Assembly (NCBI GenBank): GCA_016870615.1
Contig: VGAZ01000001.1
Location: forward strand, 6,481 to 70,480
Source of the DNA: Actinomycetota bacterium
GTDB taxonomy: Bacteria > Actinomycetota > Humimicrobiia > Humimicrobiales > Humimicrobiaceae
Direction: 5' to 3'
Length of the DNA: 64,000 bases
The position numbers and the translations under genes were made by a program. Under the pieces are notes generated by a model. The model saw only the letters and a list, made by a program, of their open reading frames with translations, was not told where the DNA came from and did no database searches. Positions 2,848-14,269 of the stretch are shown one piece after another (the first letter of the stretch is position 1; each line of letters opens with the position of its first letter).

Positions 2848-3246
2848 TTATTGCTGCTTGCTCTCAGCCCTGCTTAAGAAATCATCAAGATTGACCACAA
2901 ACCTGCTGTGGGTTCCCTCGCCTATTTTTTCTACATCATCATAAGCCTCGATTCTAAATTTCAGTTTTGCCCCATCAACCTCAGTAAGCTCAGCTTTTGC
3001 AGTTACCGACATGCCTACAGGCGTTGCCGCTATATGCCTTATATCAACTCTGGTTCCCACAGATGCATATCCCTGGCAAAGCTTGCTGTCCACGCAATTA
3101 ATTGCGGCAGCTTCCATTAGCCCTATCATTGCCGGAGTTGCAAAAACCCTGACTGTCCCGCTTCCATATTTTAATGCTGTATTTTCATCTGTGACTCTTG
3201 AAATTGCCTGGCCCTGAATGCCGGGCTTTAAATTAAATTCACTCAT
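2848..3246 (-). CDS. hotdog-fold thioesterase, FlK (fluoroacetyl-CoA thioesterase)-like family
   Basis: Blocks VFATPAMIGLMEAAAI, GTRVDIRHIAATPVGMSVTAKAEL and DDVEKIGEGTHSRFVV are collinear with my recollection of the FlK thioesterase motifs. Confidence 0.65.
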   Translation of the reverse strand: MSEFNLKPGIQGQAISRVTDENTALKYGSGTVRVFATPAMIGLMEAAAINCVDSKLCQGYASVGTRVDIRHIAATPVGMSVTAKAELTEVDGAKLKFRIEAYDDVEKIGEGTHSRFVVNLDDFLSRAESKQQ

Positions 3247-3551
3247 TTAGCCCCCAATTATATAATAGATTATTTTTAAATATTACAGCTTAATTCCCGC
3301 TTAATTATTATCCGGATAATTATAAATAATTTTTTGTGATGTTACACTTAAAAAGTTTTTAAATCCTGCAAAACACAAAAAACTATTCCCTGTGCAACAA
3401 TCAAGGTGGCAATCTTCTATCATGCCTTAATCGAATAGAAAGTAATTACTGTAAATATAAAAAAATAATTGCTGGCACAGTTTTATTTCCAGCAATATTG
3501 ATTATTTTTGAATTGGCATTATCATAAAACCATTTAACCGGATTTCATAAC

Positions 3552-11549: not shown

Positions 11550-11625
11550 GGCGCATTCGTCTAGTGGCCCAGGACATAGCCCTCTCACGGCTAAAACAGG
11601 GGTTCGAGTCCCCTATGCGCTACCA
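11550..11625 (+). tRNA. tRNA-Glu (anticodon CUC)
   Basis: Folded by hand into a cloverleaf: 7-bp acceptor stem GGCGCAU/AUGCGCU, D-arm GUCU..GGAC, anticodon stem UAGCC/GGCUA with loop CUCUCAC, T-arm AGGGG-UUCGAGU-CCCCU, and an encoded CCA. It closely resembles bacterial tRNA-Glu. Confidence 0.85.
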
Positions 11626-12326
11626 GTACATTTTGATAAAAAATCAAAAAGTAATTTCGAATTGTTTTCTAGATTTCTTAAGATTGTTTTTTGCCATTTT
11701 TTTGGTAGGGAATTAAATATATCTGAAATCTTTTTTTTCTGTGTTTTGTTGCCTAATAAAAATTCTCCGATTTCTTTAGCCGATGTTAAATCCCGTAGCT
11801 GCTTTTCCTTACTTGAGCGTCTTTCAAATATGATAAATTTATGGAGCACATACGCAGCAGGTTCAGGAACTACAACTGTCATATCCAGGTATTTAACTTT
11901 TATTGTATGAGATTGAAGAAGATTTAGAAATCTTAAGCCCTGGGCATTAATATGTAATTTTGGAATCCTGTATGGCTCGTTGCCTTTGCCCTTTCCAAGA
12001 TCGGCAGTTAAAAATTCCAGCTCAAGTTCCGGATGAACATATTTAGTATAGCCAGTCATATAATTTTGAAGAGGTATGAAATCTAAATCTTCTAATATTT
12101 CCGGTATATTTATCTCTTTTTTCATCCTGGGAGGATTTGGAATTAAAAAATCAATATCTAAAGTCCTAAGAAGTGGTATCTCGGGAGCGTTGGAAAAATA
12201 ATCTTTGTAGAAATAGTGGCACCAGCTTCCAATAAGAATAATATCTTGCAGAACGCCTGCATTATGAAGTGTATTTAATATTTTGAAAAACAGATTACTT
12301 TTTCTTTTCACTGGATATCTTTTCAA
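11613..12326 (-). CDS. nucleotidyltransferase-fold protein (AbiEii-like GS...DIDF motif), putative toxin or defence effector
   Basis: LIGSW...RTLDIDFLIP resembles the hG[GS]...[DE]h[DE]h pattern of the minimal NTase fold. The gene overlaps the upstream small ORF by 32 nt and abuts the 3' end of tRNA-Glu. Confidence 0.4.
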   Translation of the reverse strand: MKRYPVKRKSNLFFKILNTLHNAGVLQDIILIGSWCHYFYKDYFSNAPEIPLLRTLDIDFLIPNPPRMKKEINIPEILEDLDFIPLQNYMTGYTKYVHPELELEFLTADLGKGKGNEPYRIPKLHINAQGLRFLNLLQSHTIKVKYLDMTVVVPEPAAYVLHKFIIFERRSSKEKQLRDLTSAKEIGEFLLGNKTQKKKISDIFNSLPKKWQKTILRNLENNSKLLFDFLSKCTGSA

Positions 12327-12609
12327 GTTTTAATACATCTCTTTTAACCTGGTTGAATAGCTTTTGAAGCTTTCTTCTTTCTTTTATGCTGCCTTCAAGC
12401 TTAGAGATTTCATCTTCATTTAATTTTCCTAAATATTTAAAAACATTTTTCTTATCATCTCTATAATTTAGATAATAATAAACATGCCCCTTTATTTTCT
12501 TTTTTATCAAGCTTCCTTTTTGATACTTCTTTAATTTATTCTCATAGTTTTTTTTAAGGTTAATTAACCTGTTTAACTCTTCTTTTAAAATACCATTTAA
12601 AACTTCCAT
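12295..12609 (-). CDS. small Lys-rich coiled-coil protein, putative partner or antitoxin of the NTase-fold protein
   Basis: It is 104 aa and translationally coupled to the NTase gene. It has strong coiled-coil character and a KGHVYYYLNYRDDKKNVFKYLGKL segment that could be a wing/HTH. I recognise no family. Confidence 0.35.
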   Translation of the reverse strand: MEVLNGILKEELNRLINLKKNYENKLKKYQKGSLIKKKIKGHVYYYLNYRDDKKNVFKYLGKLNEDEISKLEGSIKERRKLQKLFNQVKRDVLKLEKISSEKKK

Positions 12610-12624
12610 AATTACCCGCTAATT

Positions 12625-12717
12625 TTACCAGACAATTTATTTTTTTTAATATGCTGTCTGGTAAATTCTTTAACGTGTTACCAGACAATTATTAATTTAT
12701 TATTATATGTCTGGTAA
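12625..12717. promoter_or_regulatory. two tandem copies of a 10-bp-arm palindrome TTACCAGACA-N20-TGTCTGGTAA, a candidate operator upstream of the small-protein/NTase operon
   Basis: Arms lie at 12625-12634 with 12655-12664 and at 12678-12687 with 12708-12717. Both AT-rich spacers are 20 nt. A further AGTTTACAACTT / AAGTTGTAAACT palindrome lies near 12795-12850. Confidence 0.5.
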
Positions 12718-12953
12718 CTAATGTCAATATGGGAATAGGTATATTTGAATAGGTATGTCTATATTTTATTATATTTTATATTTTACTTTAATTCATAGTT
12801 TACAACTTATTTAAAATCTCAATTATTAAGTTGTCAACAAGTTGTAAACTATTCTGTGTATTATTGCCTGTCATTACTTAAGAATAACTCCCTGTATATT
12901 TTAATTTCTTAATAATTAGTTTGAAATATTGTAACTTGGGGGCTACCAGTTAT

Positions 12954-13298
12954 TTATTCATAATATTTTAAAATTCTGTCTTTACTGTGATTACTCTGTT
13001 TACCTTTAAAATATATTTCAATAAATTCTATTTTTTGTTCTTCTGTAAAAAATGCATAGATTATCCTGATACCACTATTTGAGCCACTGCCTTTTAGAGA
13101 TCTACAACGGAATTTTTTGACTTTAAAAATTTCAGTTTTTATACCAAGATCACTGATTGGAAAGACCCTTGATGGAAAACCCCTTGGGTGCTTATTTAAA
13201 AATTGCTTTAATAAATTCAAATCTTCTTTCAGGCTTGGATATTTCTTTAATAGTTTTTCAAAATCTTTTTTAAACTCCGAAAGACTATCAAACTCCAT
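12954..13298 (-). CDS. RelE/ParE-superfamily type II toxin (HigB-like)
   Basis: It is 114 aa. The N-terminal FKKDFEKLLKKYPSLKEDL and C-terminal GIRIIYAFFTEEQKIEFIEIYFKGKQ segments match the RelE/ParE fold pattern. It lies immediately downstream of the XRE-Panacea gene, with a 3-nt gap. Confidence 0.55.
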   Translation of the reverse strand: MEFDSLSEFKKDFEKLLKKYPSLKEDLNLLKQFLNKHPRGFPSRVFPISDLGIKTEIFKVKKFRCRSLKGSGSNSGIRIIYAFFTEEQKIEFIEIYFKGKQSNHSKDRILKYYE

Positions 13299-13301
13299 AT
13301 A

Positions 13302-14060
13302 CTAATACTCCCTGACTGAGTGCATATCTTTTCTGTAGAAAACAGCTTCATAATCAATAATCTCAAGGTCAGGAGTAATTTCATAGGGTATATCCTCATG
13401 TGAATAATCTTCGATTTGATTAGCGTTCATCGAGGATAACCTTTCAATCACATTATCAATAATTTCTTTATCTCTAGCAGTTAATAAGCTTATATCAGCC
13501 CTTACCAATGGAATGTATTTTATTTGCCTGTAATTATGATAATCAATACTCGTCTTTAAGATTTTTTTACTTTCCAGTAACTCTTTTTCTATTTCTTCAA
13601 AATGGCAGGGAGCCGGGCCATGCTCTATTTTTCTATATAATTCTCCTGTTAAGTACTCCTCATTTAACTCATAGTAATCAAAATCAATAAAGTACAATAA
13701 TTTATATATAACAGTTTTTCCAACATTAATTTTTGAACCACATTTTTCTACTATGTAAAGTAAGATTTGCTTAAACTTTCCTTTATTAAATATAGGTTTT
13801 TCTTCTTTACTTTTTAAATTTAATTCTTTATCACATTTATTCTTGTAAAGTAGTTCCTCTATGGATAAATCAAACAATTTTGCAAATAATGCCAACTCAT
13901 AACTGGAAACCTCCCTTTTGCCTGATTCAATTAAAGATATTGCAGACCTTGGTATATTCATATTTTCTGAAAGTTTTTCTTGAGAATACCCAAATTCTTC
14001 TCTATATTTTTTTATGAGTTCACCTAATTCTTTATTATTATTTATTTCTAGATTATGCAT
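13302..14060 (-). CDS. HTH-XRE plus Panacea (DUF4065, SocA-like) domain antitoxin
   Basis: An N-terminal XRE HTH (GYSQEKLSENMNIPRSAISLIESGKR) is followed by a Panacea-domain block (GKTVIYKLLYFIDFDYYELNEEYLTGELYRKIEHGPAP). Confidence 0.65.
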   Translation of the reverse strand: MHNLEINNNKELGELIKKYREEFGYSQEKLSENMNIPRSAISLIESGKREVSSYELALFAKLFDLSIEELLYKNKCDKELNLKSKEEKPIFNKGKFKQILLYIVEKCGSKINVGKTVIYKLLYFIDFDYYELNEEYLTGELYRKIEHGPAPCHFEEIEKELLESKKILKTSIDYHNYRQIKYIPLVRADISLLTARDKEIIDNVIERLSSMNANQIEDYSHEDIPYEITPDLEIIDYEAVFYRKDMHSVREY

Positions 14061-14269
14061 TTTACCTCCTAATACTTGAAATAATACAATATGTTAGAAA
14101 TAAAGGCAAGTATTGTTAGAAAATAAAACAAAATAATTGTATAAAAATTGATATTATATTAATAAGAACTTCATAACATGCAGTGACGCATTCTGCTTAT
14201 TTATTGCAGTTTTCAATTTAATATAGGTTTTAAGGCAGTATTTGTCCTATCTGGTTTTTGCTTATATTA

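Follow-up and report, generated by a model that had tools for sequence, protein, structure and literature searches.

The locus described here raises the question of what kind of toxin is paired with a Panacea antitoxin that carries a helix-turn-helix (HTH) domain, how that toxin would be held in check, and how the pair is controlled. The locus lies in a 64,000-nt stretch of DNA from an Actinomycetota bacterium (assembly GCA_016870615.1, contig VGAZ01000001.1, positions 6,481 to 70,480), hereafter called the window; coordinates without an accession or locus name are positions in it. Two minus-strand open reading frames (ORFs) were verified against the ORF list of the window, panA (13302–14060, 252 aa) and panT (12954–13298, 114 aa), with stop codons included in both intervals. 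A preliminary description had read them as an antitoxin-first toxin-antitoxin (TA) pair, in which a Panacea domain fused to an XRE HTH precedes a toxin of RelE/ParE fold. We consider it probable, with good confidence, that panAT is a chromosomal type II cassette of the PanA-PanT group T14, in which a RelE-superfamily toxin would cleave mRNA, the Panacea protein would neutralize it, and the operon would be autorepressed through operators in its own promoter.

Gene structure, domains, and toxin fold

The two genes are joined by the sequence TAG-tat-ATG, which leaves exactly 3 nt between them and keeps both in the same reading frame. The end of panA contains a predicted ribosome-binding site for panT, AGGGAG (13308–13313, minus strand), which precedes the start codon at 13298 by 9 nt. 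Given the 3-nt gap, the shared frame, and a ribosome-binding site placed within the last codons of panA, the junction is, at the level of sequence, the usual picture of translational coupling of panT to panA. The gene order and gap proposed in the preliminary description are borne out by these coordinates and by the junction itself.

The linkage of the two genes extends far beyond this organism. A scan with a PanT profile, restricted to one genome per species, returned at least 542 loci, and 80 were kept for analysis of the pair. PanT loci were found in Bacteroidota, Omnitrophota, Saganbacteria, Acidobacteriota, Patescibacteria, and other phyla, and in one Aenigmatarchaeote metagenome-assembled genome (MAG). 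A homologue of the window's Panacea region directly precedes panT, in the same orientation, in 79 of the 80, the single exception ending at a contig end. The upstream ORFs encode 247–329 aa and are colinear over the HTH, the Panacea domain, and the tail. Such an ORF could be delimited in 73 loci, and in 70 of them the distance from its end to the toxin start falls between −11 and +13 nt. The conserved tight junction, together with this upstream Panacea gene, upholds the earlier view of an antitoxin-first, TA-like unit. The genes around the pair are wholly different between loci, and three unrelated neighborhoods were seen. A metagenome scan with PanA gave nine loci that were used for footprinting. 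DNA similarity to the closest relatives (75–89% identity) starts at about 14131–14171 and stops at 12937–12953. Since this homology begins at the first operator (O1, described below) and ends at the stop codon of the toxin gene, panAT is, as judged from sequence, a discrete cassette running from O1 to that stop codon. A plasmid BLAST search with the cassette gave no match.

The window copy is a divergent member of its class and comes from an AT-rich genome; its nearest relatives are 82–92% identical and all come from metagenomes or MAGs. The nearest genome relatives (L010, L011, and L012; 70–84% toxin identity) are MAGs labeled 'uncultured Actinomycetota bacterium', and the DNA of these loci has a GC content of 31–37%. 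Another close homologue is labeled Clostridiaceae. The taxonomic labels of the L010–L012 bins look unreliable.

Both domains of PanA are recognized in Pfam well above the curated thresholds, which bears out the domain fusion proposed earlier and answers the call of the preliminary description for a profile search with PF13274. Residues 16–70 match HTH_3 (E = 3e-13, 50 bits against a cutoff of 23) and residues 119–225 match SocA_Panacea, PF13274 (E = 7.3e-16, 59.5 bits against a gathering score of 25.7). PanA has 1651 homologues, and the best 120 of these 1651 share its architecture. In an AlphaFold2 model, based on 35 homologues and with a mean predicted local distance difference test score (pLDDT) of 85, residues 9–71 (13848–14036, minus strand) form the five helices of an XRE/Cro-type HTH domain. 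Foldseek and HMMER matched this part to solved structures of C.BclI and C.AhdI, both controllers of restriction-modification systems, and of ImmR, SinR, and the P22 C2 repressor. HTH residues R20, Q27, R38, E45, and R49 are invariant in an alignment of colinear PanA orthologues from the cross-phylum genome loci. Beyond a linker of low model confidence (residues 77–86) lies the Panacea (DUF4065/SocA-like) domain, a confident alpha/beta domain at residues 93–242 (13335–13784, minus strand) that exceeds the Pfam Panacea model in size and is strongly conserved; it is the proposed toxin-binding part. Fold and profile searches with PanA matched the HTH part only and turned up neither a solved Panacea structure nor a Panacea-RNase complex. 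The HigA model of NCBIfam scored 16.7 bits on PanA against a cutoff of 47.7.

The fold on which the preliminary description had staked its label is the one predicted for PanT: structure prediction and fold search place the protein in the RelE/ParE superfamily, with an N-terminal strand, two helices, and an antiparallel sheet. A comparison with HigB2 of V. cholerae (VcHigB2) provides a map of the putative active site. Alanine substitutions at VcHigB2 R51, R64, Y82, and K84 cut activity 170- to 3000-fold, and the toxin needs a long Gly/Lys-rich beta2-beta3 loop (Hadzi et al. 2017, PMC5416850). In the HMMER alignment of PanT with HigB2, these four residues (EcRelE K54, R61, Y87, R81 region) align to PanT R64, R78, Y96, and K98, and the loop ASKGKGKRGGS-R-IIYY aligns to SLKGSGSNSGI-R-IIYA, a KGxGxxxG-x-R-I-I-Y loop and strand motif being common to both toxins. 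R78, Y96, and K98 do not vary among 37 diverse relatives whose identity to the window protein reaches down to 48%. PanT has 286 close homologues, and a profile search of 1.84 billion representatives extended the family to 909 clusters at 50% identity.

A PanT-type domain also occurs in an entirely different setting. P0319, a protein of 3334 aa with filamentous-haemagglutinin repeats (PF13332), ends in such a domain (residues about 3213–3327), which is 37% identical to PanT and keeps the equivalents of PanT K59, R78, Y96, and K98. This sequence suggests that the domain is also used as a polymorphic toxin of the CdiA-CT type, although P0319 is one database protein and could be a gene-calling fusion.

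Pairs of this kind have been catalogued before. Kurata et al. 2022 (PNAS 119:e2102212119; PMC8832971) surveyed Panacea neighborhoods, and their Dataset S1 contains a toxin cluster pT15, group T14, described as 'hypothetical protein' with the HHpred result 'Toxin HigB-2 (99.73%)', the order A|T, and gaps of −17 to +12 nt. The PanAs of T14 carry an 'HTH' N-terminal domain in bacteria and are listed as 'noNTD' in methanogens, which are archaeal (PMC8832971). The Pedobacter jeongneungensis H1ai pair listed there (HTH PanA, A|T, gap 2) is our locus L080 (NZ_AYMG01000012.1, PanA at 2198–2998, toxin from 3001, gap 2), an identity that we infer from strain, architecture, and gap. This locus was retrieved with the window toxin profile, and its toxin is 50% identical to that of the window. 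By its sequence the window pair belongs to group T14, a class catalogued computationally, for which function is a prediction. It shares with T14 the Panacea antitoxin, mostly with an N-terminal HTH, and the antitoxin-toxin order, and differs from it in no structural respect. The NetFlax supplement holds no entry for the panA-panT pair.

Probable operators in the predicted panA promoter

Short repeats upstream of panA had been proposed as possible sites of autoregulation. The sequence TGTTAGAAA does occur twice, and only twice, in the window when either strand is counted (14092–14100 and 14114–14122), where about 0.97 occurrences are expected per window. The two copies are spaced 22 nt apart, and as both fall in the panA promoter region, their co-location is not due to chance. 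An autoregulatory role is very probable, but the copies are not simple direct repeats as had been thought; each forms the right half of one of two tandem 19-bp palindromes, the predicted operators O1 and O2.

O1 (14113–14131) reads TTGTT-N9-AACAA, a perfect 19-bp palindrome-type site that lies just upstream of the −35 element and contains the repeat at 14114–14122. It is the sole 10/10 match to this motif in the whole window on either strand. O2 (14091–14109) is weaker, reads TTGCC-N9-AACAT, contains the repeat at 14092–14100, and overlaps the −35 hexamer and the spacer. The centers of the two sites are 22 bp apart. The promoter itself is a predicted sigma-70-like element (14081–14109, minus strand; 9/12 in a consensus scan) with the −35 hexamer TTGCCT (14109–14104), a 17-nt spacer, and the −10 hexamer TATTAT (14086–14081). 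A putative ribosome-binding site of panA, AGGAGG, is at 14065–14070 on the same strand.

Comparison with other loci argues for the function of these sites. Eight related upstream regions are unalignable save for one block, which comprises GTT...TC(T/G)AACA, the −35 TTG, AACAT, the −10 element, and the Shine-Dalgarno sequence. Within this block, GTT...TCnAACA of O1 is invariant in close relatives, AACAT of O2 is invariant in the eight relatives, and the GGAGG of the ribosome-binding site is kept in all eight regions; the TTG of the −35 and the TA..T of the −10 stand at conserved positions in related loci. Of 76 genome loci, 54 have a site that agrees with TTGTT-N9-AACAA at 9 or more of its 10 positions in the 170 nt before panA, and in 43 of those 54 a second site is found 21–24 bp away. 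Upstream of panA such sites number 5.7 per kb, as compared with 0.125 per kb in the remaining sequence of these loci, an enrichment of 46-fold. We infer, with good support from these sequence comparisons, that PanA would autoregulate the operon by binding O1 and O2 through its HTH and occluding the promoter.

Several PanA subfamilies (L020, L023, L030, L013, L041, and L001) are without TTGTT-N9-AACAA. Other repeats are found in them at the same 22-bp tandem spacing, examples being AATGTAATAA, TGTAATATAATC, and TGTAAT...ATTACA (ATGTAAT-N5-ATTACAT), and L020 has an inverted repeat with 27-nt arms upstream of panA. The architecture of the operators appears to be conserved among PanA subfamilies, with the recognition sequence having diverged.

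Mechanism and competing explanations

In the mechanism that we propose, a single promoter would drive panA and then the translationally coupled panT. Free PanT, for which VcHigB2 is the nearest counterpart, would most likely enter the ribosomal A site and cleave mRNA under translation by means of R78, Y96, and K98, joined by R64 in the window copy, and of a long Gly-rich beta2-beta3 loop. PanA would bind the toxin directly with its C-terminal Panacea module, perhaps including the conserved tail, and so neutralize it. Its HTH, presumably dimeric, would bind the tandem operators that flank and overlap the −35 element and thereby repress the operon, and loss or inactivation of PanA would leave the toxin free to stop translation. 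Our confidence is highest that PanT is toxic and bound by PanA, and decreases from there through A-site cleavage of mRNA and autorepression via O1 and O2 to the placement of the neutralizing determinant in the Panacea module. The first of these steps is argued by analogy, since toxicity and neutralization by direct PanA binding are general properties of validated PanATs; direct complex formation by PanAs has been demonstrated (PMC8832971). The nine validated pairs of that study comprise membrane, toxSAS, MazF-like, and Fic/Doc or cyclase-like toxins, and none is RelE-like.

Several observations weigh against this mechanism. PanT gave no match in Pfam (even at E ≤ 1), whose profiles include RelE (PF06296), ParE_toxin (PF05016), and YafQ_toxin (PF15738), none in NCBIfam or PADLOC, and only an unannotated family in PHROGs. 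PF06296 was matched by 10 of 37 PanT relatives, all below the gathering score (best E = 0.002). The RelE/ParE label of the preliminary description therefore holds for structure prediction and fold search, but the standard profile libraries are silent on it, and the profile search with RelE/ParE models that it had proposed formally fails. The link to HigB2 by sequence is borderline (E about 1e-3), and the assignment of catalytic residues draws on a predicted structure and on an HMMER alignment that spans 45 residues. PanT R64, the equivalent of HigB2 R51, is present in the window copy but is Ala in most relatives. In Dataset S1 the T14 group has the status 'notest' (PMC8832971), and we found no later experimental work on this class in the literature. 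In several multidomain PanAs, neutralization is carried out by domains other than Panacea (PMC10440598). At the level of the operon, a sequence scan of the region found no terminator 3' of panT, and O2 matches the operator motif at only 7/10 positions. The loose motif TTG-N11-AACAWT is not rare in AT-rich DNA and occurs in the window about as often as expected (4 matches, 3.7 expected), and for this reason the operator claim rests on the uniqueness of the 10/10 match and on the enrichment across loci.

Comparison with characterized systems helps to delimit the proposed mechanism. In HigB2-HigA2 of V. cholerae (PDB 5JA8/5JA9/5MJE/8A0X), the toxin gene comes first and HigA2, which is without Panacea, neutralizes by an N-terminal disordered segment, whereas panAT has the antitoxin first, an N-terminal HTH, and a presumed neutralizing part in the C-terminal Panacea. 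By sequence, panAT falls outside the classical higBA definition, which requires a toxin-first order and a HigA-type antitoxin, and PanT would work like HigB2 without being part of a higBA operon. E. coli RelBE and other RelE-superfamily mRNases (YoeB, YafQ, and archaeal RelE) are paired with antitoxins of the ribbon-helix-helix (RHH) or Phd/YefM type with a C-terminal wrapping peptide and have no HTH-Panacea protein; moreover, no Pfam RelE/ParE model reaches its threshold on the panT product. Another related system is the MqsR:PanA of the Bartonella/Burkholderia type (Ernits et al. 2023), which likewise combines a multidomain HTH PanA, of the architecture ZBD-HTH-Panacea, with a RelE-superfamily-related RNase, and in which the HTH is thought to dimerize and autoregulate. 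There, the Zn-binding domain (ZBD) neutralizes and Panacea is dispensable. The window PanA has no ZBD, and for this reason Panacea or its tail would have to carry the neutralizing role.

Which of these two carries it is the point on which the strongest alternative bears. PanA ends in a conserved tail, ...R-x4-SVR-x-Y (residues 243–252; 13305–13334, minus strand), which lies outside the Pfam Panacea model and may serve to bind the toxin or to mark PanA for degradation. Residues 245–252 have pLDDT below 50 and are predicted to be disordered; yet S248 and R250, together with R243, are invariant in an alignment of PanA database homologues. R243 and R250 are invariant among the colinear orthologues as well, where V249 is conserved to at least 90%. 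It is conceivable, although we think it unlikely, that this tail neutralizes PanT as a linear element, or that the HTH does so as in some HigA proteins, with Panacea acting only as a scaffold or sensor. RelB and HigA2 offer a precedent, as both neutralize with short segments that fold on binding, and ZBD, PAD1, or Phd-C rather than Panacea does so in some multidomain PanAs. Standalone Panacea, however, is reported to neutralize directly (Ernits et al. 2023, PNAS 120:e2305393120, PMC10440598). The HTH is dispensable for pairing, in that the archaeal PanAs of T14 are listed as 'noNTD'; since T14 toxins pair also with PanAs of this kind, the Panacea module rather than the HTH would hold the neutralizing determinant.

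A second alternative concerns the role and trigger of panAT and is compatible with the molecular mechanism and with everything seen here. The system may serve mainly in anti-phage abortive infection, with Panacea sensing a phage product or a phage-induced shut-off and releasing or activating the HigB2-like RNase, a suggestion that we regard as rather doubtful. In multidomain PanAs, Panacea has been proposed to act as a sensor, and the TA network has been connected to defense systems (Ernits et al. 2023, PMC10440598). Phage-encoded relatives of both proteins exist in PHROGs (phrog_5869, E = 7.5e-8; phrog_1281, E = 4.6e-13), and the PanA HTH resembles HTH and controller models of PADLOC. The cassette, moreover, lies in a low-GC islet (11626–14269; 27.9% GC against 38.0% for the window) that is abutted by a tRNA-Glu(CTC) gene (11550–11625, plus strand) and holds a second TA-like pair. 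Against this, neither the toxin nor the Panacea part is recognized by a defense-system model of PADLOC, and the T14 class has no experimental defense phenotype. The islet is also flanked by housekeeping genes rather than by a defense island (a GAF-ANTAR regulator, class II fructose-bisphosphate aldolase, and glutamate synthase; PlsY, MatE, and H+-PPase).

Two further explanations deny that PanT is an mRNA endonuclease, and both appear improbable. PanT might instead be a DNA gyrase poison of the ParE type, whose members share its fold superfamily; ParE structures rank below the mRNases in the fold search, however, and the invariance of R78, Y96, and K98, together with the predicted structure, favors a ribosome-dependent mRNase of the RelE/HigB2 type. 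ParE toxins in ParDE and PaaA-ParE are without RelE-type catalytic residues, their antitoxins ParD and PaaA are unrelated to PanA, and panAT has neither a toxin devoid of RNase residues nor an antitoxin of that kind. The weakest explanation, that of a plain transcription-factor operon with a degenerate, non-toxic RelE-fold co-regulator, could appeal to the lack of toxin profile matches and to the variable R51 equivalent, but we set it aside almost entirely in view of active-site residues strictly conserved in at least 37 diverse relatives, a family of 909 clusters, a two-gene linkage kept across phyla despite changing neighbors, and reuse of the domain as the last part of a giant CdiA-like protein (one database protein).

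Surroundings of the cassette and significance

The second two-gene unit of the islet (11613–12609, minus strand) encodes a 104-aa protein (12295–12609) whose ORF overlaps that of a 237-aa protein matching NTP_transf_8, PF12281 (E = 1.4e-23). The 104-aa protein matches no family, and sequence searches of NCBIfam, PADLOC, PHROGs, and PDB gave nothing for the unit. The last 13 nt of the 237-aa ORF run across the tRNA-Glu gene, which is encoded on the other strand. This unit is probably another TA-like or nucleotidyltransferase module. A 344-bp spacer of about 24% GC (12610–12953) separates it from panT. The spacer contains a 40-nt palindromic element, TTACCAGACA...TGTCTGGTAA, in two copies (12625–12664 and 12678–12717), as well as a 22-nt inverted repeat (12795–12816/12831–12852). 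These elements overlap the best sigma-70-like promoter of the region (TTGACA-17-AATAAT, 12727–12699, minus strand) and are candidate operators of the second module.

In a metagenomic relative (L091, 2501–3683), panT ends 1 nt from an orthologous tRNA-Glu(CTC) gene that is 93.5% identical to that of the window, with no second module in between. Because panT abuts the tRNA gene directly there, the NTP_transf_8 module of the window appears to have been added between the tRNA gene and panAT. In another locus (L092, 1–1035), a tRNA-Val gene follows about 120 nt after panT, and the panAT cassette seems to settle repeatedly on the 3' side of tRNA genes. An Rfam search of the region found the tRNA only. 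No integrase was found, nor did the 3' end of tRNA-Glu recur within 10 kb as an att-like direct repeat of at least 11 nt, and an integrated element cannot be claimed on this basis. In the Bacteroidota-type locus of P0107 (L004–L006, 3351–4547), the pair is followed by a conserved gene for a 157-aa protein without a Pfam match and by a 161-aa phage-integrase fragment, a neighborhood that hints at a mobile-element context for some members.

As a discovery this cassette carries little weight, as it fits a class already enumerated in a published survey, and a specialist would not be surprised by it. What is added, and should make the class straightforward to examine by experiment, is a confident fold assignment with a map of the catalytic residues for a family of toxins unrecognized by any curated HMM, a predicted operator motif that extends from Bacteroidota to candidate phyla, and exact boundaries of the cassette. 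A bolder idea, to which we give little credence, is that the globular Panacea domain or the SVRxY tail both holds the toxin and senses a phage product or proteolysis. This would be a new type of control over a RelE-type RNase, making panAT a phage-triggered abortive-infection switch rather than a passive addiction module. If this is true, the cross-phylum 19-bp code (TTGTT-N9-AACAA, in tandem at 22–23 bp) would be a portable regulatory part; no such features have been described for T14. More generally, Panacea-RelE pairs offer a clean system in which to understand how one antitoxin domain neutralizes unrelated toxin folds.

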